Below, piece by piece: positions 7,606 to 64,000 of a stretch of DNA of 64,000 bases (the first letter of the stretch is position 1; each line of letters begins with the position of its first letter). The notes beneath the pieces were generated by a model. It was given only the letters and a program-made list of their open reading frames with translations, was not told the origin of the DNA and did no database searches. The position numbers and the translations under genes were made by a program. The stretch is from Peribolospora baueri (Eukaryota), in NCBI GenBank assembly GCA_029717555.1, contig JAMDHS010000029.1:62001-126000 (forward strand), given 5' to 3'.

Positions 7606-8525
7606 TTGGAATGAGGGGAGGTCAGACTACGGGCGAGCTCCTGTCTTTCTTTCGCTGCGGAGACGAGGGAGGGAGGGAGAGGCGAAACGGGACGGGGCTT
7701 GGTGGTGATATAGTTAGTTCAATGGAGGTATCGGCCGATGTGCATCGAGCGAGCTGGCCGAGTGGAAGGGGGTGAAGAGGGGTCGGCCGGCTTAAAGAGC
7801 TGCGTTGTGGCGGGTCGGAAGGGAGCCGAGGGAAGGAGGAGGAAGGAGGAGGAGGCAAGAGGGGCGGCAATGAAGGGGCGAGACGAGGCGATACGGGAAA
7901 TTCACATTTTCCACCGAGCTGAGCCGTTTTTGGTGGCGGAAGCCTATTGTGCAGAGGAGACGGCACCTGAGCGTTCACCAACCCGAGGGGGGGGGGCGCG
8001 AGCGGAGAGGAGGGTGAGCGATTTACGAAGTGCGATTGCGTTTCCGTCCGTCTGTCTGTCCGTCTTTCTTTATTCTTCCTTCACCGGAAGGCGGATGCGA
8101 GTGGGAGAATCCGGCGAGGACGAGGAAGGGAGCGTGTGTGGATTTCAAATCGGCCGGGTGGAGGTGGGAAGGCGAAAGAAACGATAAGCGACGATGATTA
8201 GATGACGATCGCATTGTTGCCGCAGCACCAGCCGCAGCCGCAGCAGTCGCTCGAGCGCCCGCTCCTTGCCGAGTGAGTACCTCGGCGGTGACGATCACCG
8301 CGACGGTCGTCCTCCGCTGGAGAAGACGGACGGAGACTCACGATCGAACTCGCACAACGCTCGCACTCACTCCCACCCTCGCACATCGTTGTTTCGTACA
8401 CATATCTTCTCCACCCGCTCGCCAATGATAATCCCGGATCCTGTCGCCATCGCCCGCGCCCGCGCTCGCGCCCACATGGGCATTCGTCCGTCATCGTCCT
8501 TCGCTCACCCACTCTAATAACTGAT

Positions 8526-30300: not shown

Positions 30301-31092
30301 ATCATGGGCAAGCGGTACGATGGGCGAAAGACGGATGTGTGGGCTCTCGGCTGCGTTCTCTATGCGCTTTTAACGAGGGCCTTGCCGTTTTTGGATGACG
30401 GGAAGGGTGTAGGCCGGGAACATCCTGCCGTCCTCGGCGGCGTCAGTAAGGGTTCGCAAGGCGGAGGCGTCGTCGGCGCCGGCGTCGCGGAGAAGGACCC
30501 GCGAGAGAGAAAGAAGCACCTCCTCCGCATCGCCAAGGCCGAGCTCACGTGGCCCAAGGCTTCTGACGTCGCAGGTCTCGAGGGCTTTGCAGCTATGCGA
30601 ACCAACGCCAGCGCCGCCTCCACCTCCTCCTTCACGTCGTCCTCTTGGACAAATCCCGGTCGAAGCGGGTCTGAGAGCGACACGGTCGCGACAGTCTCTT
30701 CGCCACTGTCGCCCATCTCGCCCAATCCTTTGTTCTCTTCGTCGCCTACTAACATTGTCGCACCGGTCACCCTCGGCCTCGGCGTTGGCGGTGGCAGCAC
30801 ATCCTCTCTCCTTCCTGCCGCCGCGAGTGCCAACGCGGCTGCCTCGCTCCTCTCGTCCGCCTACCCGCTCATCACGTCCTCCTCCAAAGCGCTCGTCTCG
30901 CGTCTGTTGCGCCGCGATCCGACAAAGCGGATCGACGCGTGGAACGTGTGGGACGAGGAGTGGATGAAGGAAGACGGCGGGGAAGGCGCGCCGGTCGATC
31001 CGAGGAGCGCTGATGGAAAGGCTTGGCTGAAGAGCGAAGGAGCGATGGCCAGGATTGGCGGAGCTGTCGCGGAGGTGGCCAAGATGGGATGA
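27313..31092 (+). CDS. Ser/Thr protein kinase (CAMK-like; Prr1/Nnk1-like) with long S/P-rich N-terminus, multi-exon
   Basis: LGVGAFSRV, VALKMI, REVEVL, GGELFD, HRDVKLE|NILL, KLTDFGLSRF, TRCGSEEYAAPE, TDVWALG, RLL.RDP.KR. The start codon is inferred. Confidence 0.88.
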
Positions 31093-44475: not shown

Positions 44476-47400
44476 ATGGCAATGACGGCCTCCGTCTCTT
44501 CCATGTCGTCGGCCGGCTCGGCTTCCGTCGTCGACACCTTCCTTCGCGGAGGAGGAGTGGACCGCTCGGGGCAGAGCACCTCCGGAGTCGGCGGGTCTCT
44601 GTCCGTCTCGTCGACGGCGGGCGTGTCCGTTTCCAAGGCGCCGTCCAAGGTCGAACCTCTTTTGGGGCCCATCCCCTTTTCGGACCGACTTCGTTTTGCT
44701 GTCTTTCCTCAGCCTTCTCCCCGACCTTCTAATCTCAACGCTTCCTCGCGTGGCAAATCCACGTCGAAGTCGGCGGGTAAGCCCGAGAGGCGCACGGTTT
44801 CAACGGTTCGACAACCGAAGAAGGATGTCACGTCCGCAGAGCGCACAGACGGTGGGGACGTCGCCGAACCGGAGAAGCTGTTCTGGTTCACCGTCGACGA
44901 GGACCTGGTGTACCTCAGCTTCTTCGGTGACTGGGGACCGTTGAACTGCGCTCAGTTCTACAGGTTCTGCATACACGTCCATCAAATGTTGATGGTGGGT
45001 GGCGCAGGTTATCGTCATCACCGGACCATGCATTCGACCTTTGTCGACAATGGGTTTCGGTCGCTTGTCACCGCCACTGTTGTTACTGGGACTGACATGC
45101 GGACCGTTCCATTTTATATGTTCTCTGCCCCTGCATTCATTGTCTCCGACCCCACACCCTAGGACGACTCGCTCCAAGAGCACGTTCTTGTCCTTTACAC
45201 CGAGGATGACCCGGCCAAGAAGGCCAACGCTGCGCTTCTCATAGCTCTCTATGTTGTGCGTATGCGAGTTTTCTAGCAGTCTACGTCCAACCTACTGATT
45301 CCAACGACACCCGTGTTGGCGTGCTTCATCTTTTGCAGATGATCATCGACAAGAAGAGCCCCGCAGACGCCTTCCAGCCGCTTGCCGAGGTAAGCCTTGA
45401 TGCGCCTGTGCTGTCGAACTCGTGCACATGACCAGACCACTCATTCTATGTGATTTGCATCGTTCCTTTGGCCTTAATAGATTGAGTTCGTCCCATTCCG
45501 AGACGCCGGTTACGGGGTGGCGTCGTACCATTTGTCCATCCAGGTGCGTCCGGGGAGACCACTCGACCCTGTGTTGCCCTGTCGGAGGCTCACAGGCTTC
45601 TTTTTCATCTAGGATATTCTCTACGGCATGCACCGAGCCATCTCCCTGTCCCTGCTCGACCTCTCCACGTTTGACCTGGACGAGTACGAATACTTCGAGC
45701 AGGTCGCCAATGGTGACTGGAACTGGATTACCCCAAACTTCATTGCCTTTGCCTCTCCCTCAGACCGAAACTGGTTGCTCAGCCAGCGGGCGGGGGAGGC
45801 CGGCAAGAAGGCCGGAGGGACGTCTGGTGCCCTGGACAGGCCCCTGCCTATCACGTTCCAGAACACGGTTAGCTGTTTCAAGGAGCGAGGCGTGAAGATG
45901 GTCGTCCGTCTCAACAATCCCCTGTACGACCGAACTGTGTTCGAAGCTGCCGGCATAGAGCACCTGGTAAGTTGCGCAAAGCTTTTTAGCGGACCTCCTT
46001 CGTCTAGTCCGGCAACTGATATCACGCTTCATTGAACGTTCTGAACGTTCATTCGACTGTTAGGACATGTACTTTGACGACGGGAGCAACCCCAGCGAAC
46101 ACATCGTACGCGAGTTCATTCGACGCGTTGACGACGTCGTGGAAAGTGGCGGTGAGCGAGGCCTTCTGCATGGGGCCGCTCGTCCCATGATCCTGAGTGT
46201 CTCGTGCTTCACTACCTAGGACACTGACGCTTTATGCTCATCTGACGTGTCTTGCCTGCTTACAGGCGTTATCGCCGTACACTGCAAGGCCGGTCTTGGT
46301 CGAACCGGTGTGCTGATCGGGGCCTATCTTATCTGGAAGCATGGCTTCACAGCCTCGGAGGTCATCGGCTTTATGCGAATCATGCGACCAGGCTGCGTCG
46401 TCGGCCCTCAGCAGCACTTCATGTATCAGAGCATGGTGAGTGGACATGGGAGTCGGACTACATGTGCTCTCACTTAAACCATTTCACCCTCTTCCTCTCT
46501 TTCCCTTCGTCTTCACACAGATGACATGGGTGCAGTGGGGTGCTGAGCACCGCGCTATGAAGGCTGCAAAGGAGGCGGCGGCGGCAGCGGCCGTCGCAGC
46601 ATCCGTGTCTTCGCCTTTGGCTCCTCGGTCCAAGCGGCCAATCACGCCGCCGGATGAGGAGAACACGCCAGCGATGCTCCCGGTAACTCCACCGAGGGAA
46701 ACAAAGGTGCCGCGGGCGGGATCTCGCGAACCAGCTTCGTTCACGGCGGCCACCCCTCCTGCTGTCAAGCCGACGCCGGTGGTCGGTCAGCCGAGGAAGA
46801 GCCCGAGCCCGAACCCGGCGCGAAGGATGGCGTTGGCGGAGGCCAAGCTCGGCAATCTGTCTAACATGGGCACCATGACAGTGGATCGGTCGCACCTTCG
46901 TCACCAGAGGATGAAGAGCGCTCACGTCCTGATCAGCGGTCCCAAGGGTTTTCCTTCCACCGGTGCGCCGACCGCATCCGATCGCCTCCTGGTCGAGGAA
47001 CAGGAGGAGGAGGACAGCGATTTCGAAGGCTTCATGGACGTCGACCTTGAGCGCGTCCCGATGTCGACTACTCCCACCAACCTGCCCACCAGTGTGCGAA
47101 GGTTTGATCTGCGACGAGCAGCTTCGCCATCGGACTCTGCGGAAGCGAACAAAAGCGACGACAGCATCGACGAGCTGGCAATGGACCGCCAAGAGATGCC
47201 GCTCTCCGCTTCACCCGTCCGGCGTCAGGGTCGGGTGCCCTCCAATGGCAGCACAAGCCGACTGCCCACCCTCGTGAGAGCTGACACCGGCAAGCGCGCC
47301 GAGGATACTCCTTCACCGAAACCGGACGATGATGTGGACGTCAAATCGTCTTCCGTGCGGCGGCCGACGTCGCGCACCACGGCTCCTGCTCTGGCACACG

Positions 47401-47804
47401 CTCGGTCTCTACTGAACCGCACGGCCAAAGTGGGCGCCGGCGATGCGAGAGGCAGCGTCGGTGCCATTCGGTCCTCCAGCCGAATCGCTGCCGCCTCCGC
47501 TTCTTCAACCCTGTCGGCCGCCGGTCTGAGTCGCACGAGAGGCGCGGCCAACCCAGGCGTGTCGTCGGTGGTGAGGGCTTCTCGCGCGACCGGAGCGCGG
47601 CCTGTGAGCATGGTGCGTGAGTCGAAGGAGGTGATTGAGGACAAGGGCAAGGATGCCAGAACGGTGCCGAGGTCGCTGCTCCGACCAGCCGCCGTCGGCA
47701 GCCGGGGACGAGCCGTGCCGGCATCAGCAGTAGATGGTCGTGGACCGCGCAGGACTTTGAGGCGACGAAGGAGTAGCCTAGGCGAGGCGGACGTCTGCGT
47801 TTGA
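44476..47804 (+). CDS. CDC14: Dual-specificity protein phosphatase Cdc14, multi-exon
   Basis: [86 protein letters not shown], active site [24 protein letters not shown]. Confidence 0.96.
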
Positions 47805-48869
47805 TGGTCCGTCTCTCCCCCGCCCACCCCAGCCTCGTTTCAACATCCTTGTCCGCCATCGCCCTGCGTCCGATCGCTCTGGCGCATTGCTCGCGATACC
47901 CGCGATATCCTTTCCATTTTCCGCACTTCTTCCGTTTAGTCCTTTGAACTGCGTTTTCTTTCTCGCTCTACGCATCGCTCTATCGCTTTGCCTCTTATCC
48001 GATTCCATTTATCAGTTTTTGACGCAGAAGCTGCAGGCGCCCATCGCATCTTGCCTTGCAGCGGACGTCCCAGCACACTCCCTAACCAGAAAAAAAGTTT
48101 CTTTTTCATTTTTCGGCTTTGTTCTCTCTCATCCCTGCTTCTTTTTTTTCCCTCTCCCCTTTCGAGCTTTGTCGACGGGCCATTTACCCTTCAAGACAGA
48201 CGGAGGCGGCCCGGAGACGGGGCGACATAGTTATTTTTCTCTTCCCCATATGGCATTCCCCGACCCGCTTCTTTTCATCCTCTTTTTTTTTTTCCCTTTC
48301 TCTTGCGCTCTGATCGTGGTTCGTCGCTACTGTTCCGTCGATCGGACCGTGATCATTGTCTGATGACAAGCATGAACACATATGTCGTGGCTGCGGGCAT
48401 ATCGCGCGTGCGCCGAGCGTGAAGGACCGGTTATGGAGGCCCGCTCTTGCGAGGCAGTTCCAGGACCCTACACCACTGCGAGTAAGCTAGAGGACGTTGA
48501 CGATCATTTCTTCATCCGGCCCGAAACGCTTTAAGCCACCGACGGGTATCTAAACCTCGGGAGAGTGGAGCCCTATTCTACACCATTAGGTTTATTGATG
48601 AGGGATACGAAAAGATACACCCTGGGAGTGTCGACCACGCAAGACAAGCTTAGGGCTGAAAGGGGACGGACGATCTGTATGCTCACACCAGTTCTCGCTC
48701 TCCCAGCCAGACTCGGACCTCGCGGCTCGACCACCTCCGCGAGCTACGAATCATGTCACACAGGGCGACGAGCACGGGTGGCGGCGGAGCTGGAACCGAG
48801 GTTCGAGGAGACGGCAGGACCGGAGCGGCGGAAACGGAACGAGTGACACCAGTCGGCCCTGCAACAGCG

Positions 48870-50513
48870 GTCATTGGTCGGTTGGAGGAGTGGCTCGTGC
48901 GCGGGGCCTGCACGACTTTGTCGGCGACGTGGGGATCGAGCCTGTGAAGAGAGGAGAATGGGGGCGACTAGGCTTGCCGGGAAGCATCATCCCGACATCG
49001 GATGGAAGATCATCTCCATGCGCATCGGTTCGGCCTTCGCCATCCCCCTCTACCTGGGTCCTCCACGCCTCGAGCGCCTTCATGTCCACGCCCTCGAACC
49101 TCACTTCCTCCCACATATGGACTGCCGTTCGGTCGCCGTCCTCGCCCTCATCCGTGCTCCCTCCTTCGGGCCTCATTTCCAGAGAATGTGCGTCCAGGAG
49201 GAGCTCGATCACGTTCCGCAGTTCGGCTGCACACGTCGACCCTTTGTTTCCTCGATTCGGGTTTGGGCGAGCGCGACTCGAAAAATGGCAGACAAGAAAG
49301 ATCGAGCGTGAGGCGCTTGACGAGTGCGGATGCAGGAATGGTGGCAGACTCAGCGCGACAGCGGCCGAACTGGGTGGTCACACAACGCGCCCAGGCATAC
49401 GAGCAAGATGCGAAGGAGTTGGGACTGAGTGCCACTTGGAGGAAGGTCGATACGCTTTTCCATGCGCCGAGCGAGAGGTGAACTCAAGTCGAGAATCCAG
49501 GGAAAGAGGCGCTGACGGAGAAGGGTTCACCTGCGCTCTGTCACACGCAGCGGCGGAGGCCCATGTGTGTCGAAGGACAAGGTGAGCGGAGAGAAGATTG
49601 GACTGAACCAACCTGGCGGCGAACAAACCATCCGAGCGCGCCGCACAAGTGCCCTTCGGAGGCTTGCGTTCGATGGCCAGTCTCAACGGCGCCGTGCGAA
49701 TGCGCCGTGGGACGAACTGGTAGCTTGTCGCTCCCCAGCCATAGTTGGGGAAGCCATATGGTGGAAAGGTTGTGTTGAAGAGGCGGCCGTCCAACCAGGG
49801 GAAGAGCTCTGCGGGCTCGAATTCCTTGTCGTTGTTCACCTTGGACGATGAGGACAAGGGGGAAAAGCGGATGGAGTCGAGGTAGCGGAAGAGGAGGAGG
49901 AGCAGACGGAGCTTGATTTAATCGGTACGATCAAGGAGGGTGCAGACGGGAAAAGAAAGGAGTTCATCAGTGGAACGTTTCTCTGCGGAACCCCGTTGTG
50001 ATTGTACCCTACCTTTTCTGGCTCCCAGTCCTTGTACCGAACCTTCAACTCAGTTCTGTACCGTCCCAGCCGCGCGATGACATCCAGATCAGCGTCGACG
50101 GAGAAGTGCACGGCGTCGTCCAATGGCATCTCGGGCCAGTCAAAGTAGAGAGGTAGGCGCCAAGCTTGAGGCTCAAACGGCTATAGAGAATGGGGGCGCA
50201 GGTTTCGTACCTAGTTGAGAATTAGATGGTGGCGGACGAACGACGACGTGATTTGGATCAGCGCACCGTACAGAGTTCCATGGAGCAACGGTCCAGCTGC
50301 TTACCGGTCACGGCACACGCTCATCACCTTGACCGCGTCCGTCCACTTGTTCCTTCGGACGCCCAGCCCTTCGGTACCAAACGACATCGAAGATCTCGCC
50401 TCAACAACGATGTGTTCAACGACATACCGAAGGACCTTTACCGGCAAGCGATGCGAAGGGGATGCTGTCTGGCAGGCAGTGGGCATGGAATCGGTGTTCG
50501 GTGGGCTTGGCAT
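48870..50513 (-). pseudogene. Probable degenerate gene with F-box-like N-terminus
   Basis: RLPVKVLRYVVEHIV...AVKVMSVCRDR*AAGPLL (F-box-like pattern with in-frame TAA at about 50301), followed by coding-like fragments PFEPQAWRLPLYFDWPEMPLDD.., FEPAELFPWLDG.., WEEVRFEGVD.. with interruptions. Confidence 0.35.
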
Positions 50514-51295
50514 CAGGCTTGGCTTGCGAAGCGCCTACTCTGCTGTGAACAGAGGTTAAAAAACAAAGGGAAAGCAGATCCTCGTCGCTGTCTTGCCCAA
50601 CAGGAAGGTTGGATCCAAGGCAGATAAACGAAGAGGTGGGGCAAACGTGGAAGAGGAGACCTGGAGAGCAATAGTCAGATACCTCGCCTTGCTCTCGTGT
50701 GGCCAGGAGAAAACCCCAATGCTCGAGTGATAAACAACTCGAATGTTGCCTATATCAAGGCCGTTCGTGATCGGCAAAATAGGGATGGGCGTTCCAGTGG
50801 CGGTGTCGGAGACGTCGGCGAGGGCGGCTGGCGCCTCAATGCTCACGATACACCGATCTGAACGCCTTAGCGTCCTCCATGGTCTCGTCGGCGACGAAGT
50901 CGGCGCCATTTGCATCGCCCCCGAGTACTTGCATGTTCGCCAGTTCGCTACGTTGGTGAAGGATGCATTCGCCGCACCGTCCGCTGTGGAGAGCATTTAC
51001 CTTAGTTCCATACTGAGGGCAATGAACCGGCAAGCATTTCCACATGGTTTCCGACGGGACCTACCGGACGTATGCTCAGCTCAGTCCTGTTCAATGCAGC
51101 GTTTCTGGCCATGACGAGTCCCTACGAGCGCGTCCACTCACGAGTCGTGAGGCAGAGGAGACATGGCAGCCCGTTGTGCTGGCTGGCCGCTGAGCTGTCT
51201 TCAAATCCGTATCTGGCGCCCAGGTCTCAATGCCACTAGGGGCTCGAATGCGAGGAGAATCTCAATAGCCCAAGTTCGTCGCCGGCCAGAAGCGA

Positions 51296-51999
51296 CTAGC
51301 CATGTACTATATATATTGTATGGGGGTCCCTGTTCGCACCGGTGTAACGGATGAAGCTGCCGACGAGAGATCCAGAGGTCGACCTATGTCAGTCATCGGG
51401 CGACGTGCAAAGGAGACATTTGCCTCGTCGCCGGCTATGTTACACTCACTAGTATTGACCGGAGGGGCCAACCGTGGGGTTGATATAGTAGCTTGCAGAC
51501 GAGGTCGACGGGTTGACGTTGGTGGCCAGGTTCTGCAGCCAAGTCTGCGCGTTGTGGCCGCCCGTGTAGAGGTCAATGGAGAAGGGGCCAAAGGCAGACA
51601 TGAGCGGGGCCTGGTTGTCCTCGTGCCACGAGACCTGGAGTTTATGGCCGCCTTGGGCGATGGACATGCTGTGACGGAACGAGAAAGCGAGACGGCAGGG
51701 TCAGCGGCCATTCGATGCGCGGGAAGGCTCACGGAACGCTCATCATAACAGACGCGTCCTTCGCTCGTCCCCCGATTTCCGCGCTTGCCCTTCTCTTCTC
51801 CGCGACGCATCTTCCCTTCCTCCCCTTCCCAAAGGCGATGTCGCACAGTCAAAGCGATGGGCGACAAAGACCGCATGCGGGGCTGCTAAGGTCACACTCA
51901 CTCGACGGGGTTCGTGGACGAGATGGTGGCCTGGGACGGGCTGGCGACGATGAGGCCGGCGAGGGCGAGGGCAGAGAGACCGGCAAAGGAGGAGCGCAT
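51296..51999 (-). CDS. Small secreted Kre9/Knh1-like N-terminal (Ser-Thr-rich GPI family) Ig-like domain protein, 3 exons, possibly 3'-truncated
   Basis: Signal peptide MRSSFAGLSALALAGLIVASPSQA, then TISSTNPV|..GGHKLQVSWHEDNQAP.MSAFGPFSIDLYTG...QTWLQNLATNV...INPTVGPSGQY|YFIRY; GT-AG introns. Confidence 0.7.
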
Positions 52000-52564
52000 C
52001 TTGATGAGTGTAGACTGGCTGGTGAGTGATAGATGGGTGAGGGTAAAGGACGAGATGGACGAGGGACGAGGAAGGAGGAAGGAGGCTGGTGTAAAGAGCG
52101 TAAGTGCTTGAGAGAGAGCGTGGAGCGAGTCGACAGTGAGTGGGACTGGTCTGAGAGGAGCGGGTGAGGAAGGAAGGGGAGGATGCCTGAGCAGACGGGA
52201 GGAAAAACAACCGCTTAAAGAGATCAAGGCGAAAGCGCTCAAGGGCGTGTGACGATGTCGTCAAAAATGAGCCAGAAAGAGAGCGTCCTCAAGGTGGAAT
52301 GTGCAACCATCGACTGCTCGCGCGTCCGCGCCGCCGGGCCGTGGCTTCTTTCCTTATAGGTAGGTGGCATCCTCCCACTAAGATGGTTCGAGCGGGAGGC
52401 CGTCGTCGTTGCGGCCGTTCGATTGGCGGCATCAGCCTGGTGCAAGGCGGCCGCGAATCCATATTGTTTTGAGGTATCGGTGTAAATGTGGAACAAGCGC
52501 ATTGCCCCCAATGCGAACCCAACCGTTCTTCCCACCATCATCGTCCTTACGGCCCTGCTTTCTC

Positions 52565-53050
52565 GCGTTCGAACAGCTCAAGACTATTCTTACGTCCGAA
52601 CCTACGCTCGCGCACCCCGACTTCACCCGCCGCCGACCCCCTCGCCGAACGACCGGTTCTCTACATTAGCCGCCGCCTCAACAAGAGCAATGAGCTTGAA
52701 ATCGCTTATCTCAGCCGAACGTAGGCAGCGACGGCGTGGGCGAGTTGGGGAAAGATGAATCCACGATGGACGGTATTGAAGGTTTCATGAATACCGAGAT
52801 GAGCGAGATCGTCATGACAAAGTTTGAGCACGTCCTTGCGGGCGACACGGGGAGCGCAGAGACGGGGATATCCGTCATTAGGGTCGCGAAAGTAAAGAAG
52901 GCCGTTACAGAGGACGTAGTGATTATGCTCGATAGATGTTGCGGGAGGGGAGAGAGTAGAGAGACGACGCTTGAGTTCCTCGTAGACTGTGCGGTAGGTT
53001 TTGTCGGAAGGAAGAGCATCAATATAGTGGTACGCAGGGGGGAAGAAGGG
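52565..53050. mobile_element. Ty3/Gypsy LTR-retrotransposon pol relic: RT-RNaseH linker and RNase H fragments on +, integrase zinc-binding region on -
   Basis: Plus strand: AFEQLKTILTSEPTLAHPDFTR and RPVLYISRRLNKSNELE. Minus strand: HYVLCNGLLYFRD...RLCAP...RKDVLKLCHDDLAHLGIHETFNTVHRGFIFPQLAHAVAAYVR. Confidence 0.88.
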
Positions 53051-55145
53051 GCAGGAAGACGGACACGAAGGCGATCGCATTTATGCTGGAGGAAAGCTTC
53101 AATAAGGTGGGGGGCAGCGGCGCGAAGATGATCTACACTGACCCCGGGTGTCGGAGGAAGGGTTGTTATCGTAGCGGACAAGGCTTGACAGACAACCCGT
53201 TGCCCGACACGCCCGCTTATATCCGCGCATATCCGAGCAGAAATTGGGGCATAAGCATTTCGCTCTCCTTTAGGTGTGGTTGGCCACCGAGGCATGGCTG
53301 GGCAGGAGAGAAAGCGTCGGCTCACCGATGACCTTGTATTCGATCACTTGATACTCTTGGATGTTTTTTGCATAGCGCTCTCCCTCGTAGCTCTCGTTGG
53401 AGAAGAATGACGGTCTCGTAGTTCTACAGCACCAGGTTATGATAGAAGGTAAAAGGTCAGGATCCCGCCAGACAACTATGTGAGCCTGCCCTCCCCCCTC
53501 CCCCACGAAAAGGCTTTGCAAAGAAAGACGAGGCAGAGGGAAGGAAGGACGGCTGACAAGAAGGGTTGTTCACCTGGCGGCGAAGATGTGCCCTGTAGGT
53601 TGCCATTTTAACTACGAGAGCCGACCAAGGACGACATCACATCAGCCCGACCTCAAGCTTAGAAGAACAGCGCCGGTCTAAGCGGCAAATGATCGAGGCC
53701 AAAGTTAGATCCCTGCCACTCACCGGAAACCCAAATGTATGTGATCATGACGATAAGGATGATCGAAGACACGACCGCTCCAAACCTGCGTGCGCGCAAG
53801 AAGGCGACATGACGGCATCGAGAACATCCCGTTGTTCAGGCGTCCTCACCAAGCCCGACCGCATTCAAAAGGGTGAAGAAATGCCTTGGATGAAGGTCTT
53901 GAGTGGAGAGAGAGAGATTCTCTTAAGCATGGATACTTCGTTGTCAAGGTGAATGCGAAAAAGGGAGGATAATGTCGGGCCTAACGTACTAAGTCTATAC
54001 TTTTTTGCAAAAACCTACCCAGGAGAATATAACAAACGGAATGGGGACGGAGGAAGCGCTGGAGGGCGAGCGCAATTTCTTCAAAAGCCAGGGCCTCTGG
54101 GTTTCTCAAGATATGTCCTTACCTCGAGGACTGATCAACAACCCGCTGGGGTCTGACTAGATGAGCCGGTACCCCGCCTGTCCCATCTCTCAGATCTTTC
54201 ACGCTGTATGAAGTGCCTGTAAGGATTTTGTCACTTAATATCGCATTGGAGAGGGCAGACTGCGAATGGAAGGAAATCATCTCATGTGAGGCATCAACAG
54301 CGGCAGAGCAGACAGATATTCTGTCTTATTTCTGTTCGTCATCTTCTAGGACGTGCAAAACCTCTCCAGTGGTCGCATTACAAGTGAGACAGAATTTGCA
54401 GAGACATCCCTGGCCTTACTCGGTCTGATTGGCGATGCATCTGCTAGTTTTCCTCCCTAGAAGAAGCAAAAAATAAGGAAGCCAAAGCAGAAGAGGACCA
54501 GACTAGGAGTAGAGAACAGTGATATCGCCGACTTTGACCACCCTAAAACCAATGACGAAGTTTCGGACAGTGCACGACCTGACAAGGTGGCTGGTTGGAG
54601 AAATTGCTTCTAGTCCACACTGTCCTCCACCTTTCCGCTCGCTTGCCACCCGGTCTCTGGCCCGAGCTCTGCCCTAATCAATGTTCCGCTTTTTCCTCTC
54701 TGTAGCGGTCTGCAGAGCTGTATGTCGCTAATTGTTCGATTAATTCGTAGCTGCAGAGATTGTCTGGCTCCGACGCATACTGGCATCACATCCAAAAGCC
54801 TTCCCCACCTCGTCACCGCCCTCTGCGTCTGATAGTTAGAAAGAGAGATTCCTTCTTCCCCAAGCGGTTCTCATCGTGCCATTACCAATCTGATCACAGT
54901 CCACGGCAGCTTCTTCGCATCCTCCCTTGCGTCGTCTGACCGGCCCCCCAACCCATCCCTTCAGAAACTTCTTTTTTTTCTGCAGGCACTTTGTTCTGTA
55001 TCACAACGACAAGTCCAAAGAATTCCAAGTCGACGGACCGACAGCCGTGGCTTCCCGCCCAGCCATTGATTCATCAATCAGCATTCGCTGTAGCGCCCGC
55101 CCGCTGTCACTTGCTCCGTCGGCCGATTGTTCCCCTTTAATCGCA

Positions 55146-55972
55146 CGTCAATTCGGACAGCTTCTCCTCTTTAAAATTTCGTCAACTTACCACCACAAAG
55201 ATCCTCCTAATGCCAGTTCGCGCATCTTGAATAGCCAGCAGAGCAGCACGACGCTGAAAAGGCTCCCCTCCGCGCCCGTCTATCCGCGATCGTCGGGTGG
55301 AAGTCGAGAGCATCTGCGAACGAGATCCAACGCATACGGCTCCTCCTCATCGTCACTGGAACAGAACAGCGCCGGTGCTTCCCCAGTGCTCACCAACAAC
55401 GATTACCATTACTTCCCCACTTCCGGCAAGCCTCGTCAGCGGGGCGTTCCTCCCTCAACGATCGAGGTTCCGATGAAATGCCCGGGGCATGCTTAGTGCT
55501 TTGGAAGAGACTTCGGTGGAATCCGAAAAAAGGGCCTATCAGCAATATCAGGAGCAACAACCTCCGACCCTACGCTCCTACCACACGAGCCCAGATCCTC
55601 GCGGGCTCCAGAAGTTGAGACAGTCCGCCAGCTTTACCGCTCTGCACCAACGTATGGAGACGTGGACTGGATTTTCGGGGGCAGAGATCTTGATGTTCCG
55701 AGGCGAACCTAACATGCTATTGACGAAACTGGAGAAGCTGCTCTTCTTGCTTCTTCCGCTGGGCTTCTGAGGGTTCCCCTCATCGGAGGACCTCTTCGTG
55801 GTGGGCTCCCGCTCATTGTCTTTCCGGTTGGGACACGATGTTGGCTATGACAACCAGACCGGTCAATTCACCGGTCTGCCGAAAGAATGGCAGAGGCTGC
55901 CTCAAGCAAGCGGCATTTCGGAGAAAGAGCAGGAGGAGCCAAACGATGGTCGATATCATGAGATTCTACGAA
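55146..55972 (+). pseudogene. STE20: Truncated Ste20/PAK kinase pseudogene (N-terminus + CRIB only; no kinase domain), Eurotiomycete-like, with internal inversion
   Basis: NSDSFSSLKFR/HKDPP..SRIL.SQQS.TTLKR.PSAPVYPRSS.GSREH.RTRSNAYGSSSSSLEQNSAGASPVL; LRQSASFTAL; inverted KKSSFSSFVNSMLGSPRNIKISAPENPVHV; VGYDNQTGQFTGLPKEWQRL...GISEKEQEE/TMVDIMRFYE. Multiple frameshifts and no intact start codon. Confidence 0.85.
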
Positions 55973-56562
55973 CCGGGTGATCGTCACAAGTTTTTGAATA
56001 AGTATTTAACCGCTGGCAATGATGTCACCCCATAATTTAGTGGATCCGCTGCCTCCCGAGGTTCCGTCCTTCCGACTGCCGATGCCCTTTCTTTTCATGT
56101 GTCAATCACAAAACACTACAGAACATGGGTAGAAAGGTAAAGTCCAGGCTGAAGGAGTCTTGCATCAGGTAGACTCGACCACCTCTCACAAAATCTAAAA
56201 TTTGGATACGAGAAATCGTCGCTCCACTGTGTGTTGATCGGTAACAGTTATGCGGCTTGTGGATGTATCTCCACAATGTTGGGTTACCGCAGGGAGGATG
56301 TGTTAATCCTCATGATAATCTCTGAAAACGATTTCGTTTTCCAATGCCAGAAACAAACCCCTTTTCAATTCCTTGGAATGTTGTTTCCTTGCAAGTTCAA
56401 GGGAAGAATGTTGATCTAATTGATTCAGGCGCATTGTATCAATCTGGTCTCTAATTGGTAGTAATCTCTCGGTCGCAATGTGCCGTGCCGTGTGCAGGGA
56501 AGATCAACAACACCAACACCTTGACCTTCATTCGATCTTATCACGTCTACAATGCAGCAATC

Positions 56563-57998
56563 ATGGCCTCTCTAGATCAACTCCCGTGGGCACTCATCGA
56601 GGAAATAATTCAACACCTTGATCTCAACTCTATCAAGCAGCTCCGTCTGACTAGCAAGGCCCTCAGCGCGCAATGTTTGGGCCCGCGCTTCTTGCACTTC
56701 TACAACCACCAGTCAACCGATTTGACCCAAGAGAGCCTCCAATCCCTTCATGCCCTAGCATAACATCCCCACCTGGCTCCTGCAGTCCAACATGTGATGG
56801 TACTCGCAACAACCTACGACCCATCACCCTTGAAAGGAATCCTGTCGAGTCTTGAGACCTCTTCAGCCGACGATTCTGAACAAGAAGAGTCGCCAGATAT
56901 GGTGCCCATCCCGCCTGAGTATGAAACCGCCGAGGAGAAGCTGCGTTTCGTTCAATCCGAGCTGGCATGGCTAGTGGATGAACAAAAGAAGCAAGAGGAA
57001 TCATTTTCCGATGAGCACATCGTCGATTCTGTGGCTTCAGCGCTGAAACCGCTCCGGAGGCTTGAAAGTATCTAGCTCGAAGCGACGGTGGTCCGAGCAC
57101 ACCATGTTCAGCTGTCGAGCAGAGAAGGGCCATGGAAAGCAGTCTGGCGCAGGGCCTCGCAGGTCTACGGCGTGACCATGTCCGCGGTCGCCAGAAGCGG
57201 CGTCGCATTGAAGACACTGACCGTTTACCGCGATTCACAGCGCTGCAGTGTTCCTTCCGACGACATCATATCCCGCCTCCCAGCCAACGGTCTGCATCAT
57301 CTGAAGACTACTGGCGCATCGTGAGCATGTCAATGAAGGTCGACACTAGCCCCCAGGAGAGTTCCCCAGTCCGCAGACCACCCTGGGAAGCACAGGCACA
57401 ACTCCAGGCCAGCGATCCCGCCGCAATGGCAGAAGGCAACTTTACCGGAGTTGCTCGCTTGCTAAGCTGCATGCCGAACCTCGAAAGGCTCGACCTTCAC
57501 CTCTACCGAACCTTAAGAGGAGACTTCGATGCCTACGACCAGATCTTCAAACGCATAGCGCAAGAAATCCACTTCCCCTCTCTGCAACAATGCTCCCTTC
57601 GCGGTCTCTACGCCACCGAAGAGTCAGTCATCAAGTTCCTCAAAAACCATGACCACCTCAAATCCATTGATATCGCGTACATCCATCTAACGGAGGGAAC
57701 ATGGAAGCCCATCTACGACGTCTTGAGCACGGAAATGCCTTACCTCAAACGCTTGTGTCTTTCAAGTCTATGGGGTGAAAGATTGGAAGGGCTAAGTCCC
57801 ATCTGGGATGATGATGATCGATCTGGCCAGTTCTACCTTCCATTCCGCGGCGGCAAGAAGGCTTATGCCCGTGAATTCGACGGAGAGGACATCAAAAAAG
57901 GCTTGAAGTTCCGCCCATCGCCGTCGGGCCCGATGCTAGGGTCACCGCAGGCCGCCCGCTGGAGGGTGTCAAATCGACAAGAGTTCGGGCCCCCGTGA
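56563..57998 (+). pseudogene. Intronless F-box domain (LRR-like C-terminus) pseudogene
   Basis: MASLDQLPWALIEEIIQHLDLNSIKQLRLTSKALSAQC (F-box). One frame continues through TAA at 56761 and TAG at 57073, then shifts frame near 57320 into ..VARLLSCMPNLERLDLH..FPSLQQCSLRGL..FLKNHDHLKSIDI.. Confidence 0.8.
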
Positions 57999-59241
57999 GG
58001 GTTTGACAATCACACCCATCTAATTCGTTAATCCGTGACTGGTTAGAGATCTACATTGAAGGAGATGAAGGAACCAATGGTGACTTGAAATCCGAACAAT
58101 ATTGTTGGCGTGGCTATCCGATCACTGGTTTAGTTCTGCGGCCAACACAAATCAGTGACAAAGAACGAAAGTATTTCGAGGCGCATTTCTTGCTACTCCT
58201 TTCTAAAGAGGCTACTTGGGTCGCGGTTTCAGCCAGGTGATATTGATTCAAGCTGTGAGATTTTCCAGCCACCCAATTTCGGTCAATGCGCCAACAAACA
58301 TTCTGTTTGACGCACTGTTATTGGTCTTGATTCGTTTGACTTTTCTCTAGTGATTCTTGTACTATTATGGCAGAGCCCGTTCCCGAGACACACTGGACGT
58401 CATCCTTTCCGCACCCCGCGAGTGGAAAAAGCGCGCTGTGCCAGAATTTCGTCGTCAAACATGGAATAGATCATCATGTTTGGGACTTAACTGTGTAACA
58501 TGGTTCGGACGCACCAAGAGAAGTTACAGTAAGACTACCTCCTTGTATCCCATGATCCATCGACCTGGAAAAGCGCTACCCCCGCAATGATAGACAAAGA
58601 GGATTCGATTGACCGAAATTGGAGACAAAGATCACCTTGAGACCTCCCGACAACTATTTTCAAACTTAGGAAACATGCATCGACAGATCACAATTGGCAC
58701 CAAAAAGGGGCACTATCTACACGAACCTCGGTTCATCTTGAAGGATGGCGTGGTTTAAGAAGAACGGTTCCTGGACAGACAATTAATAATCTCGGCGCAG
58801 AAAACCCTTTTGTTATTGTTCATCGACCTGTGTGCAATCTTAACGCCACCATAGCGAGGGCAGTGCTTGCGCCGCACATCATGTTGGTTTCGATTCTCAC
58901 TTCTTCTCCAAATGGGGGGAATTCTCGGAACGGCTGCGGCGGACAGTCCGGCTGCGGCGGCGACGACGACGAGGTTGCACAAGCGGGTCGCAATCCAGGG
59001 CATCAAACAACAAAATGTTGACTGCGGCAAAGATCGAGCAGAAGGTCGGCCGACCCGGTCGCACATCGTCCTCCATCCCGTCGCTTCTCCACTATCGTCG
59101 ATTCGCCCCTTTTTTAAGACTTTCGTCTCGTCGTGCTCAAAAGCGCCTTCCGACTTGCTTGGAGGACGGACTTTCGTCAGCGGCCGTATACCTTTGTTGT
59201 CGCCACCACCCTTGACCGCCTGCCACGCAGCGATTGTGACC

Positions 59242-60802
59242 ATGAAGACCGATGAGGCTATGAAGATCGACGCGCGCTCGCCCTCTCCCTCTTCGCGCCC
59301 CATCGCCCCCCTCCCTTCCTCCTCCTCGTCCGACCCATCTACTTCTTCCGCCGCTCGTGTACACCCCACCAAGCGCCAAAAGACCGATCCCTCCCTTGTG
59401 CCCCAAGCACCCAAGATCCCCAAAACGCTTGCTGAAAAGGAAGCGACCTCCCGTCTCATCGTCGTCCTCGAACAGGCCTGTCTCGAGACCTACAAGATTT
59501 CCTCTGGCAGCGCAACCCGCGGAGGCGGTGGAAAAGACTCAGGCAAGGATGCCAAATATGCGCTACTCAACTGCGATGATCATCAGCGCATCCTGGCCAA
59601 GATGGGGAGGGATATCGCGGATGCCAGACCGGATATCACTCATCAGGTGAGGGCAAGGGCTGCGAAAGAGACGTTTATGGAGGGAGTCGGCGTATGCCGA
59701 ACAAATATTTGCCGATATGACTGATGTCATTGCGTCTTCATCAACCCTTCTCCCCAGTGCCTACTCACCCTCCTCGACTCGCCTCTAAACAAAGCCGGCC
59801 TACTACAGGTCTATATCCACACTGCCCGCGGCGTGCTTATTGAGGTCAATCCGCACGTGCGCATTCCGAGGACGTTTAAGAGATTTTCTGGACTTATGGG
59901 TGCGTTTTTTTCATCTTCCCGGCTTTGGTTTGTTCGCCGTGCAATACCGAATACTGGGAGTGTAAAAGGGACAAATAGTAGAAGCGACCGAATCGGTCGC
60001 GGGGGGGGGGGGAGAGAGCGTCGACAAGCTATGTTTTGCGGAGACGGTAATCCGTGCTCTGTTTGGGTGGGAATGCTGATTTGTACGTCTCCTGTCGCCC
60101 TTTCCTCTCCTAGTCCAACTCTTGCACCGACTAAGTATTCGAAGCGTCAAAGGATCGGAGAAGTTGCTCAAAGTCGTAAAGGTGAGCTTTTCGTTTAAGT
60201 ATACCTTCACGTGGGCAGAACTTATGTTACGGACTTTTTGACCTCTTCCGTCCCGGTTTACAACTTTTTTTGATTTGTGATTTCCCTGTACCATTTGCCC
60301 GTTGGACCCCCAGAACCCCATCACTGATCATCTTCCTACGAATACGCGTAAAATAAGTAAGGCTTCTTTCCGCTCACTTTCTTGATTGGCCTCTCGAGAT
60401 GTGGTTCGCCGTTAAAGCCGCTCATCCATTCTTCCTTCCGCGTCGGTCTGTCCCTGGCTCCCGCTTGTCCTCCAGCTCTCTCCTTCGACGCCCCAGTCCA
60501 GCGGCTCTCCACTTACCTCGAAACTGTGCCAAAGGACCACAGCATCTGTGTCTTTGTGGGCGCCATGGCCCACGGCCCGGACAACTTCGCCGACCAGTGG
60601 GTCGACGAGAAGATCTCCGTCAGCCAGTACCCGCTCAGCGCTAGCGTCGCTTGTGGAAAGGTGAGTCGTCGGGATGTCCTGGCATAGCTGGGTTTCGATG
60701 TGGCAAAATGCTTGCTGCTGTGATCTGACGCATGTTGTCTGGTTGTTTTCTTTTCCTATTTAGTTCTGCTGCGCACTCGAAGATCTGTGGGGAGTCCTTT
60801 AA
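59242..60802 (+). CDS. EMG1: rRNA small subunit methyltransferase Nep1/Emg1, multi-exon
   Basis: [110 protein letters not shown]. Confidence 0.96.
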
Positions 60803-61304
60803 AACTGGAGCGAAGAGTGCTCTTGCCCGCCCTTGTGTGCCATTGCTGGCGAGCTGGCGTGAACAGCATCTTGCTCTACCCCATATGGCGCCTCAACTGC
60901 GTTGTTCCTCCTCATCCCTGCTTCCAGTTCCGAGTAGTTCCCTTGTCTCGCTCCCCTCCTCGCCCCACCCGACCCCCACCCGCCCGGCTAGTCGTACTCA
61001 ACTCATCATCAGACGCATGTTCAACCCATGTATCATTAGACCCGTACCCTCTTGTTGCTGGCTTTTATTCTGTCCATCCGAAGTCATCGATTTGAATTCA
61101 GGAAATATCATTTCAGGCGAATCTGTGGATAATCACACCTCCGACTTGCGACACGTGAGCTGATCACAGTAAATTGGCGAGTCGCGCGTAAATTGGGCGG
61201 ACGCCTTTCCTCCCACGACCACCCGTCTCCATGGCCACATTCGTCCCTGCGCCCATTTCTTTCAAGCGCACCTGAATCGCCCTAACGAGCGCCGGCAGAG
61301 AGGC

Positions 61305-64000
61305 ATGGTCCGGGCCGCGAAGCGCCAAAAGACGACCAGGTCTCTGGCCTCTGGCACCACCACCCCTGCTTCATCCTCATCCGCTGCGTCGCCCAACGGC
61401 GCAAGCTCTGGAGCGAGCGGAAATGCGGGCCTAGGTCAAGCTTCTCTGCTTCGCTTCTTTGCTTCCCCTTCCAAATCCGCTCCTGCCGACCTCGGAGGTT
61501 TGTCTCCCTCACGGCCAGTATACTCAAATTCTGATGAAGAGGTCCGACAGGGCAGTTCCAGATCCGGGCGACGATCGGCCATCGGTGGCGAGGGCGAGGG
61601 CGAGGCGTCACAACGAGGTGGCGTTGGGGGAAGGTCGGCGGTGACGTCGAGGGACGAGCAGGCGCAGGTGGACGAGGCAATCAGGTTGAGTTTGGCAGAG
61701 GAGGAGGAGAGGCCGTTGAGGAACGATGTGACCGCGGCGGACGGCGGCGTGCTGTGCGCGGGGCCGGAAGGGGGTAGGCCAGTAGGCGATTTTCCGTGCA
61801 AGGCAGCAGATTTGGAGGGCCTTTCTAAGGAGTTCTTCTTGGATCACGAGATGCACGAGACCGCCGTCGATGTTGGCGCAGGGCCGGTGAGCTCAGTGTC
61901 AGGGGTGGGACAAGGCGTCGTGGGAAACACGACGGTAGCAGGCGAGCGAGGGGATGAGACAGAGTGTCCGGTATGTGGTATGTTGGTTAAACAAAAGGTG
62001 AATTGACGGTCGCATGACTGGTATCAATGAGGAGCGAGCGTATATCAGGTCATGCTCATGTATGTGCTTGTCTTTCCCTCCTTCCACACGCTGGTTTATT
62101 ATGCAGGCCATTCAAACTCACGTCAATCGATGTCTGGACGGAGTACGACCCAGGCAGCCAACGTCCTCGCTGCCACCTGATGATGAACCTGCACCGGCGT
62201 CGGATCCTTCTGCTTCTCATCGATGCGCGCCGTTGGCGCCTTCCTCCAACGGTCCGGCGATTGCGTCTCGTAAGCTCACTCGAATGGCTGTTATGCCCAA
62301 TTTCCTAGCCTGGCCGTCATCTCAAGGAGCTATGCCTTCTGTTTCCAATGACCGGGCCAACGCATCGTCGCTGCCGTTGAAAGTCGAGCCACGGCGTGGT
62401 CCTTCGTCCCCGTCTCTCGATGGGCTCCCTTCGGGCAACGGCAACGCCGCCTCCAAACGTCCAATTGGTCGCCCAGACGCCTTTTCCCTCCTTATGTCTT
62501 CCCACATTGAAGACAAGGCCTGGGCGGAGAGCGACCAAATTGAATCGGACCGGCGGTCTGGAAAGGGACCGAGGATCACTACCAACAATCCCGGCAAACC
62601 TGCGCCGTTTTACAAAATTTTGCAGGGCATGCCGCTCGCTGTAGATGCGTTCCGGTTTGGAAGGATCGAGGGCATTAAAGGATATTTCCTGACGTAAGCT
62701 TCAGCGTTTCGTTCTCTTTCTTACCAGCGAGGACATGAGGAGGGCCGATAATGGCTGACGTATCTTTCGCCTTGGGCGCGCCCTTGTCGCGGATCGCAGG
62801 CATTTCCATTCCGATCATTTCGGAGGGCTTACCTCTGCCTGGACTGCTGGGCCGATTTACTGTTCCGAGGTGAGCGCTGACGTAGTTACTCTCACTTCTC
62901 TGCCGGCTTGTAAGACCGTTCGTGTTGATCTTCCATTGCTGCTACATCGCGCCCCGCAGACAACCGCCAACCTTGTACGCCTTTCCCTCCGTGTACCGGA
63001 GCACTACATTCATCCTCTGCCAATGGAGACGCCGGTGATGATACAAGGCGTGGAGGTGACGCTGATAGAGGCCAATCACTGTCCTGGCTCGGTTATCTTC
63101 CTCTTTGAGGGCCCGCAAACGATCAATATTGGACCTGGGTTTGCCAGCCCGCACGTGGGCACTGGGAGAGTATTCCGGTATTTGCATTGTGGCGACTTCA
63201 GAGCGAGGTAGGCGGTGGTTTTTATTTGTGCTTGTTCGATTCTGCAAAGGCGGCTGACCATGCACGTAAACATGGTCACAGCCCACAGCACGTCAACCAC
63301 CCAGCAGTGAGACGGAAGAAACTTGACATCATCTATCTCGAGTGCGTCGTCCTGGCCTCTTCAATGCGATACAGTGACAGATCGGGCTCACTAGTTTGAC
63401 GGGTTTCGGTGTCCAGCACCACCTATCTTAACCCCCGATACTGCTTTCCAGCACAAGATCAAGTCGTGCAGGCATGTGCGGACCTCGTCCTTCACCGGAT
63501 CGCGACAAGTTCAGTGGACTTTGTCTCGGGGGGTCACATCAAACCCGATCTTTCGAAGTTCTCTTTCACCTTCCACACGCGAGCCGTTTCTTCTTCCGCT
63601 GCCCAAGCCAATCCTTTGAGTCCTGATGCGAATTCAGGCAAGACAGACGCGGAGGAGAGCAAGGAAGAAGTAGAGGTTTTCTTGCAAGGCATGCAAGGCG
63701 ATAGCCGCCAAGGTGCCACCCTTAAGGGCTGGCTCAGACGTGGGGCTGCCGAGCCGGACACCGAACGTGTATCGACGGCGGACATGCAGACGGAGGCGGA
63801 AGATCTAGTCGACGTCCGCGTGAAGGAAGGGCGAGCAGACGATTGCTCTCCTACGGAGACTCCCAGCTTCGACGACCTCGACGTCAGCATGCCGGAGGAG
63901 GCGGCAGAGCCTTATGCAGAAGATATGGAGGAGGAGCTTGGGGGATTTGAAGAGGAGGAAGATCCTATCCGGCCGGAGGACAAAACTGAGGCACTAGTTG
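61305..64000 (+). CDS. PSO2: DNA interstrand cross-link repair nuclease Pso2/Snm1 (beta-CASP metallo-beta-lactamase), multi-exon, runs off the window's right edge
   Basis: UBZ-like CPVCG...HVNRCLD, PFYKILQGMPLAVDAFRFG, YFLT|HFHSDHFGGL, IYCSE|TTANL, EANHCPGS, YLHCGDFRA, IYL(D)TTYLNPRYCFP.Q. Confidence 0.92.

Follow-up and report, generated by a model that had tools for sequence, protein, structure and literature searches.

How does DNA that reads like part of an Aspergillus or Penicillium genome come to lie in a basidiomycete chromosome, and is it truly part of that chromosome? The question is raised by a 64,000-nucleotide stretch from Peribolospora baueri (GenBank assembly GCA_029717555.1, contig JAMDHS010000029.1, positions 62,001 to 126,000), which we call the window and whose positions are counted from its first letter. 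A first-pass annotation, made from the letters alone, had described a lower-GC (guanine plus cytosine) island at 53600..58850 with two broken genes, a Ste20/PakA gene and an F-box gene, and had proposed either that DNA was captured across phyla and has since decayed or that the assembly is chimeric. Our analysis makes it highly probable that the DNA from 53953 to about 58972 is nuclear DNA of Aspergillaceae (Eurotiales, Ascomycota) integrated in the chromosome of a yeast-like fungus of the Ustilaginomycotina. The proposed capture is upheld by a Ste20 remnant nested in Aspergillaceae, by a host chromosome of Ustilaginomycotina, by the physical linkage of foreign to host DNA and by an empty site in a sister organism. 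The positions of the features are collected in Table 1.

The evidence for the donor comes from the Ste20 remnant. All of the N-terminal peptides that the annotation had quoted, and had likened to Eurotiomycete Ste20/PakA, are present at 55147-56032, with one piece (55656-55826) on the minus strand. When residues 98-200 of the open reading frame (ORF) at 54894-55496 were searched among longer proteins, 76 matches were found, and every one of the 58 that carry an organism name belongs to Eurotiomycetes; the names are Aspergillus, Penicillium, Penicilliopsis, Monascus, Talaromyces, Rasamsonia, Thermoascus and Paecilomyces, with Onygenales at lower scores, and the best matches are Aspergillus proteins at 74-84% identity. 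For the trees, the translated pieces were concatenated with an X at each break. A careful IQ-TREE analysis of 41 rows (39 of the 58 named and two of the 18 unnamed matches, picked to span the clades) places the remnant inside a 31-row Aspergillaceae clade [ultrafast bootstrap 100, Shimodaira-Hasegawa-like approximate likelihood ratio test (SH-aLRT) 99], and a quick tree of 77 rows agrees with it. Within this clade the remnant branches from a basal polytomy that leaves it in no sampled genus, apart from both Penicillium (100/100) and the sampled Aspergillus (84/93), and it also stands outside the clade formed by Thermoascus, Paecilomyces, Talaromyces, Rasamsonia and Onygenales. By this nesting we assign the remnant to an Aspergillaceae origin, and the resemblance to Eurotiomycetes noted earlier holds in both the search and the tree. 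Its best identity is 72% over 259 columns (A. clavatus), in the normally variable N-terminus, and its end branch of 0.36 lies between those of the living lineages Penicilliopsis (0.25) and Monascus (0.42); since this is within the range of living lineages, a donor lineage missing from the sample could account for the amino-acid distance without long decay.

What is left of this gene is a fragment. When six Aspergillus and Penicillium Ste20 proteins were compared with the window by tblastn, the match was limited to residues 1 to about 327, and neither the C-terminal kinase domain nor an open frame of a Ste20/PAK gene was found within the window; the kinase domains of the Aspergillus proteins match it solely at about 30.2 kb, at 38% identity, in an unrelated host kinase gene. 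That host gene (29816-30399, plus strand; Pkinase, E = 3.2e-21) is not a PAK by present evidence. The remnant resembles the PAKs of Aspergillaceae (A. clavatus, P0005; A. ibericus, P0001; the A. clavatus reference has 827 amino acids) in being collinear with residues 1 to about 300 and in holding the N-terminal peptides and the CRIB/PBD domain. It differs from them in having no kinase domain and no initiator, position 55147 reading GTC so that the start codon is lost, and in carrying at least four frameshifts (near 55185, 55430, 55475 and 55938, with three frames read) and an inversion of 171 bp. The inversion occurred in place, because the minus-strand piece fills precisely the gap that the plus-strand matches to residues 124-175 and 239-272 leave, and inverted repeats, looked for at its breakpoints, were not found there.

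The second broken gene begins with an F-box domain (PF00646, E = 8.1e-06, 26 bits against a cut-off of 20.5). No intact reading frame was found for it, its frame being interrupted by two in-frame stops (TAA at 56761-56763, where relatives have S or R, and TAG at 57073-57075) and by a frameshift at about 57321. A phmmer search returned 435 relatives at E values up to 0.001, the best 45-51% identical, and a word-based search returned only three. Among the 20 top representatives that were looked up, eight carry an organism name (Blastomyces silverae, Thermoascus crustaceus, A. ochraceoroseus, A. wentii, two metagenome-assembled genomes of lichen fungi, Lojkania and Colletotrichum), to which Letrouitia was added from the word-based search. 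All nine are Pezizomycotina, four of them Eurotiomycetes, and none is a basidiomycete; the three best-scoring (B. silverae, T. crustaceus and A. ochraceoroseus) are all Eurotiomycetes. A quick 35-row tree sets the pseudogene closest to T. crustaceus, with which it shares its highest identity (48% across 422 columns), and leaves it outside a clade of lichen fungi, Dothideomycetes and Sordariomycetes (SH-aLRT 90), its own position being an open polytomy. The named relatives agree with the ascomycete-like character noticed earlier, and the narrower placement only leans towards Eurotiomycetes, with which this member of a fast-evolving family is compatible at 44-51% identity to its nearest named relatives, short of proof.

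Both genes are therefore broken, as had been reported, and their lesions are real in the read-derived contigs considered below. Neither foreign gene can still work: the Ste20 remnant has lost its start codon and kinase domain, is frameshifted and is in part inverted, and two stops and a frameshift interrupt the F-box gene. Judged from these letters, the foreign part is a non-functional transfer fossil. Present-day effects could arise only at the promoter of EMG1, whose start codon stands 270 bp beyond the right edge of the block, and through a host-type Kre9-like gene whose presence depends on that of the block.

The chromosome around the island had been called basidiomycete-like, and a host malate dehydrogenase (MDH) exon at 19-20 kb agrees with this. 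Its best matches are Microstromatales and other Ustilaginomycotina (Jaminaea rosea 84%, Parajaminaea 83%, Sympodiomycopsis, Violaceomyces and Microstroma 82%, and Malassezia 80% identity), and Aspergillus and Penicillium MDH reach only 75-76%. These identities lead us to assign the window to a Ustilaginomycotina, and hence basidiomycete, chromosome. An ESM Atlas search with the same gene for taxonomy returned broad families only and was dropped as uninformative. Further long host ORFs have ordinary eukaryotic domains, such as Sec2p, Alg9-like and nicotianamine synthase, the last in an ORF at 6292-7626 on the minus strand (PF03059, E = 2.9e-35).

Composition also separates the foreign part from its host. 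The GC content of 53951-58850 is 0.510, compared with 0.594 in 1-51324 and 0.561 in 58973-64000, and 2-kb bins across 53001-60000 range from 0.515 to 0.525, with 0.545-0.658 in the remaining window. The tetranucleotide distance to the host profile is 0.0269-0.0323 (z up to 4.7) in seven 2.5-kb bins with starts at 54001-57501, and the maximum among 104 host bins, 0.0262, is below all seven, so that the foreign part is the most deviant of the window and the lower-GC island is real by both measures. Host-style microsatellites are lacking, as had been claimed, with none of the 95 Tandem Repeats Finder rows between 53505 and 59292, but this is weak evidence because the host has a comparable stretch at 46818-51721 that is likewise free of such rows. 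The GC content at third codon positions (GC3) gives a modest separation only, being 0.62-0.63 in the two foreign genes, 0.67-0.84 in most host genes and 0.58 in EMG1 exon 1. A signature of repeat-induced point mutation (RIP), that is, raised TpA/ApT together with lowered (CpA+TpG)/(ApC+GpT), was not seen in the foreign part (0.54 and 1.31; host left flank 0.57 and 1.03), and the idea of a RIP-mutated repeat was dropped, both indices being normal.

To see how the foreign DNA is joined to its surroundings, we used four public runs of one study that hold part of 51001-61000, two from an organism A (X1 and X2, 0.99 of sampled words) and two from an organism B (X3 and X4, 0.11); the data are Logan contigs aligned on 45001-64000, not raw reads. 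Organism A has contigs at 45001-48193, 48528-51544, 51545-53350 and 53336-64000, all with 0 differences from the window and with depths of 114.9, 117.9, 108 and 111.7 in X1 and 91.9, 89.7, 89.2 and 89.5 in X2. The last of these, a contig of 15,809 nt found in both runs, comprises 617 bases of host repeat, all of the foreign DNA and more than 5 kb of host right flank including EMG1, and the contig at 48528-51544 spans the left edge of the block. A mis-join or a contaminant is very unlikely, because one contig holds host repeat, foreign DNA and host flank together. Bridging of the junctions at even coverage, which had been suggested as a check, is found at the right junction and at 53952/53953 in two runs, and is interrupted at 51544/51545 and at 53336-53350, where contigs break. 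The frameshifts cannot be long-read errors, and the frameshifts, stops and inversion that had been argued to speak against contamination stand in contigs of two runs with 0 differences over 53336-64000. Between the first two contigs, at 48201-48557, a 354-nt contig has a depth about 3.5 times that of the adjoining contigs (396 compared with 115 in X1, 321 compared with 92 in X2) and is a short multi-copy element of organism A; the organism B contig passes this place at normal depth.

Organism B, which differs from A in 312 of 11,274 flank letters (2.8%), has an exact empty site. In each B run (X3, X4) one contig of about 41 kb joins 51324 to 58973 and skips 7648 letters, three of which (GGT) fit either side, GGT being present at 51325-51327 and again at 58973-58975. 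No match of at least 80% was found in B over 54511-58948, while the contig joins across, nor over 52609-53242. A comparison of sister strains for presence or absence had been proposed, and in this single relative the block is absent in both runs. Because B joins 51324 to 58973, the lineage-specific block is wider than the island first described; the limits of the latter, given as approximate, are refined to 53953 to about 58850-58972 for the foreign DNA and to 51325-58972 for the indel relative to the sister.

Table 1. Positions of the features of the block, of the Ste20 remnant and of the adjoining host gene (positions in the window)
Feature	Position	Strand or frame	Basis
Block present in organism A (window), absent from organism B	51325..58972		B contigs join 51324 to 58973
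Kre9/KNH-like small secreted-protein gene, host-type, apparently intact, two exons	51449..52000	-	ORFs; PF10342
LTR-retroelement pol scraps, scrambled	52356..53343		RNase H pieces on both strands; integrase zinc-binding 52706-53080 (-)
Host repeat pieces, last host-like DNA before the foreign part	53565..53952		Matches to other contigs
Foreign non-coding DNA upstream of Ste20	53953..55146	+	Low GC; uncovered in organism B while a B contig joins across
Ste20/PakA remnant, codons 1 to ~300 of ~830	55147..56032	+	tblastn with Aspergillus Ste20 proteins; frames read
A. clavatus Ste20 residues 9-96	55164-55424	frame +3	72% identity
A. clavatus Ste20 residues 124-175	55477-55656	frame +1	tblastn
A. 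clavatus Ste20 residues 181-238	55826 down to 55656	-	42/58 identical
In-place inversion, 171 bp, including the first half of the CRIB motif	55656..55826	-	tblastn
A. clavatus Ste20 residues 239-272	up to 55938	frame +1	tblastn
CRIB/PBD (p21-Rho-binding), second half	55840..55938	+	PF00786, E = 2.2e-11, 44.3 bits, cut-off 21.3
A. clavatus Ste20 residues ~275-300	55940-56032	frame +2	tblastn
AT-rich spacer between Ste20 and F-box gene, GC ~0.45-0.47	56033..56562		Weak Ste20 similarity gone by 56080
F-box pseudogene, full-length, intronless, ~478 codons	56563..57998	+	PF00646; collinear tblastn with P0077, P0201, P0205
AT-rich foreign non-coding DNA, GC ~0.45-0.50	57999..58850		Composition
GC-rich trinucleotide-repeat-like right end, host filler or donor	58851..58972		Sequence
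EMG1/NEP1 first exon, host right flank	59243..59650	+	PF03587, E = 3.7e-13; collinear with organism B contig from 58973

The left part of the block is of host type. The Kre9-like gene has a signal-peptide-like exon 1 to about 51898, an intron and an exon 2 at 51449-51700. It scores 30 bits for PF10342 (E = 8.8e-07; cut-off 24.6), its GC3 of 0.81 is host-like, and its identity to a paralogue elsewhere in A and in B is no higher than about 84-91%; as the gene lies within a block that is absent from B, this gene family has one member in A that B lacks. In the adjoining long terminal repeat (LTR) retroelement scrap the integrase zinc-binding part is matched at E = 9e-09 (PF17921), and the RT_RNaseH_2 pieces are weak (E = 0.0017 on the plus and 0.046 on the minus strand, both below the Pfam cut-off). 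Within 52356-52630, positions 7-29 of the RNase H profile lie on the plus strand and positions 29-76 on the minus strand to the left (sub-cut-off matches), and pieces on opposite strands imply that the scrap is internally rearranged. The contig at 51545-53350, which holds part of the Kre9-like gene and the retroelement scrap, is single-copy in organism A at depth 108. Farther right, 53565-53828 is matched by other contigs of A and of B with 40-41 differences and with loose ends at 53827 and 53952, and near the right edge, around 58940-58954, a further contig of A aligns with small indels.

The non-coding foreign DNA and the edges of the block are plain. No Pfam family below E = 0.1 was found in the 13 upstream, three spacer and seven downstream ORFs, and the ORFs scanned include no recombinase or transposase family, no tyrosine-recombinase (DUF3435) ORF and no long ORF in the block. 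Neither the block nor the foreign part is bounded by a pair of LTRs or terminal inverted repeats or by a long target duplication, the edges carrying the 3-bp repeat only. Outside the block, A and B also differ by a rearrangement at 49676-50370, where the B contig has 50061-50358 followed by an inverted 49736-50054, with 49676-49735 missing; coding-looking minus-strand ORFs overlap it. Together with the 171-bp Ste20 inversion and the scrambled RNase H, this rearrangement suggests that small inversions are common in the lineage. Ordinary indels between the two organisms are 33 additional letters in B at 61797/61798 and 14 fewer at 45106.

How the foreign DNA was put together can be read in part from its layout. 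It would be a mosaic of at least two donor fragments, one with the upstream region and the first ~300 codons of ste20/pakA and another with the whole F-box gene and its flanks, the spacer between them being the probable junction. Two or more joined fragments are suggested because Ste20 ends at about codon 300, an unrelated complete gene follows after the spacer, and the two genes lie apart in the four species compared: in none of them does ste20 adjoin the nearest F-box relative, the two being 609 accession numbers apart on one 2.8-Mb scaffold in A. wentii and on contigs of different length in T. crustaceus, A. ochraceoroseus and B. silverae. With F-box relatives as distant as these, it looks like at least two fragments, not firmly so. 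One contiguous donor fragment with an internal deletion was considered and is unsupported, the genes being apart in all four species (whose F-box relatives are distant, at 44-51%). The fragments may have been taken up as naked or lysed-cell DNA and then joined by end-joining, which is suggested because a 3-bp microhomology bounds the whole 7,648-bp patch. A scan of metagenomes with the F-box query found no relative, and with the Ste20 N-terminal query it found three loci (L001-L003) at only 48% identity, none of them close.

Several points weigh against an integrated Aspergillaceae segment. X1 and X2 come from one study and may be the assembly's own data, not independent strains; the breaks between contigs fall in host repeats, so that the order of the three pieces inside the patch rests on the window assembly; and no near-identical donor DNA came to light, the highest identities being those given above for Ste20 and, for the F-box gene, 48%. 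Half of the inner branches of the F-box tree (16 of 32) are open, so that a single Eurotiales donor of both fragments is no more than a possibility, the polarity of the indel rests on one relative without an outgroup, and four or more frameshifts within 0.9 kb of Ste20 would be a large number for an insertion made after a split at 2.8% divergence. The first of these points would also serve the view that Aspergillus-like contaminant reads were threaded wrongly into a host contig, as would the right edge, which falls in low-complexity GCG/ACG sequence of a sort that graph assemblers may join wrongly. We nevertheless regard such a chimera as very improbable. A single contig per run, in two runs, carries host repeat, foreign DNA and more than 5 kb of host flank with 0 differences, and its depth equals that of its neighbours (111.7 compared with 114.9, and 89.5 compared with 91.9); organism A has no empty-site contig, B has no low-complexity stretch left of 58973 to share, and a living contaminant would not have such broken genes. 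The bridging contig, the even depth and the exact empty site in the sister thus counter the chimeric assembly that had been offered as an alternative. Vertical descent, in which both genes would be decayed host paralogues that are merely ascomycete-like, could appeal to their chromosomal position and to an F-box family that evolves fast and whose tree position is open. It is extremely improbable in view of the Aspergillaceae nesting of Ste20 (100/99) with 72% identity to A. clavatus over a variable N-terminus, the absence of basidiomycetes among the 58 named Ste20 and nine named F-box matches, the foreign composition, and a sister without a match of at least 80% over 54511-58948 that joins across.

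If the segment is an integrated piece of Aspergillaceae DNA, it may have entered before or after A and B split, and we find it slightly more likely that the patch predates the split and was deleted in B than that A gained it recently. For an old patch speak the 84-91% identity of the Kre9-like copy to its paralogue, which is far below the likeness of A to B, its retained intron and its single copy in A, shared by the retroelement scrap, as well as at least five frameshifts and two stops, which are many for a lineage divergence of about 1.4%. For a recent gain speak a composition that is not ameliorated, the lack of excess branch length and a patchwork with microhomology. In its one-step form, which we hold quite plausible if short of an even chance, a break upstream of EMG1 in A was end-joined after the split with a patchwork of loose DNA, namely retroelement cDNA, a host gene fragment and mould fragments, and some of the truncation and inversion damage was made then. 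The exact empty site in B with its 3-bp microhomology, the GC of 0.51, an end branch (0.36) no longer than that of Monascus (0.42) and hence little extra substitutional decay, and the retroelement scraps without LTRs that adjoin the foreign DNA, with small inversions in both, all fit this course. It fits poorly with a Kre9-like gene that retains its intron, has no near-identical source copy and is 9-16% diverged from the paralogue in A and B, compared with 2.8% between A and B; with a retroelement scrap that occurs once in A and is unmatched at 80% or more in B; and with the number of frameshifts and stops that would be needed within about 1.4% of divergence. The same low identity (84-91%) of the host-like part of the patch to its A and B counterpart would be expected if the whole 7.6-kb patch had introgressed from a third, related basidiomycete with an earlier mould capture, as with the orthologue of a more distant relative. 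An old paralogue explains the same identities, and the sampled words are held by organisms A and B only, with no such relative among them, so that this second-hand arrival seems very improbable.

Transfer of genes between fungi is a known process. The fructose transporter FSY1 is a working gene transferred from fungus to fungus (described, in outline, in PMC3688497), and yeasts of Wickerhamiella and Starmerella have genes derived from Pezizomycotina (likewise in outline, PMC13376923). The present locus resembles these transfers in its nesting in a donor clade far from the host, in its linkage to host genes and in its patchy presence among relatives. It differs in that half a gene, a dead gene and non-coding flanks were moved, nothing of which is functional or plausibly selected, in the combination of an Aspergillaceae donor with a Ustilaginomycotina recipient, and in the exact empty site in a sister; no report of a transfer from Eurotiales to Ustilaginomycotina was found in the titles and abstract openings of the papers that literature searches listed.

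In its structure, the patch recalls products of DNA repair. Break repair in yeast captures filler DNA such as retroelement cDNA and mitochondrial DNA, with insertions like those of mitochondrial DNA in nuclear genomes (NUMTs). Like filler capture and NUMTs, the patch combines pieces that have nothing to do with one another, includes retroelement scraps devoid of LTRs, shows short microhomology where it ends and lacks transposon ends; it differs from filler capture in that part of it comes from the nuclear genome of another phylum, and in an intron-bearing host-type gene that is not a recent copy and that capture in one step explains poorly. Starships and other giant cargo elements of Pezizomycotina are a known means by which Aspergillus and Penicillium DNA passes from one species to another, and their cargo can be broken, but no tyrosine-recombinase (DUF3435) ORF, terminal repeats or long ORF were found in the block. 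The process itself is a known one, and this is an unusually clean case of it, being non-functional, with non-coding flanks included and with an exact empty site in a sister.

Claims of transfer across phyla usually rest on odd trees of working genes, and they can be disputed by invoking contamination, loss or selection. These objections do not apply here: the DNA is of no use to its host, has non-coding flanks, is enclosed by host sequence within read-derived contigs and has an exact empty site as counterpart in a sister. The block documents the raw material of transfer and not a selected outcome. For annotators it means that an Aspergillus-like match in the assembly of a basidiomycete need not be a contaminant that has to be filtered out. 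As a tentative and rather unlikely scenario, the yeast may have taken up random naked pieces of the genome of an Aspergillaceae mould living near by and end-joined them into a break together with retroelement scraps, without any selection. If this were true, the flow of DNA across phyla would be frequent enough for neutral junk, besides useful genes, to be caught before its deletion, and the joining itself would have left the small inversions and truncations as its scars. With this block there is a definite locus from which to estimate the frequency and the repair route by which foreign DNA enters the genomes of basidiomycetes.

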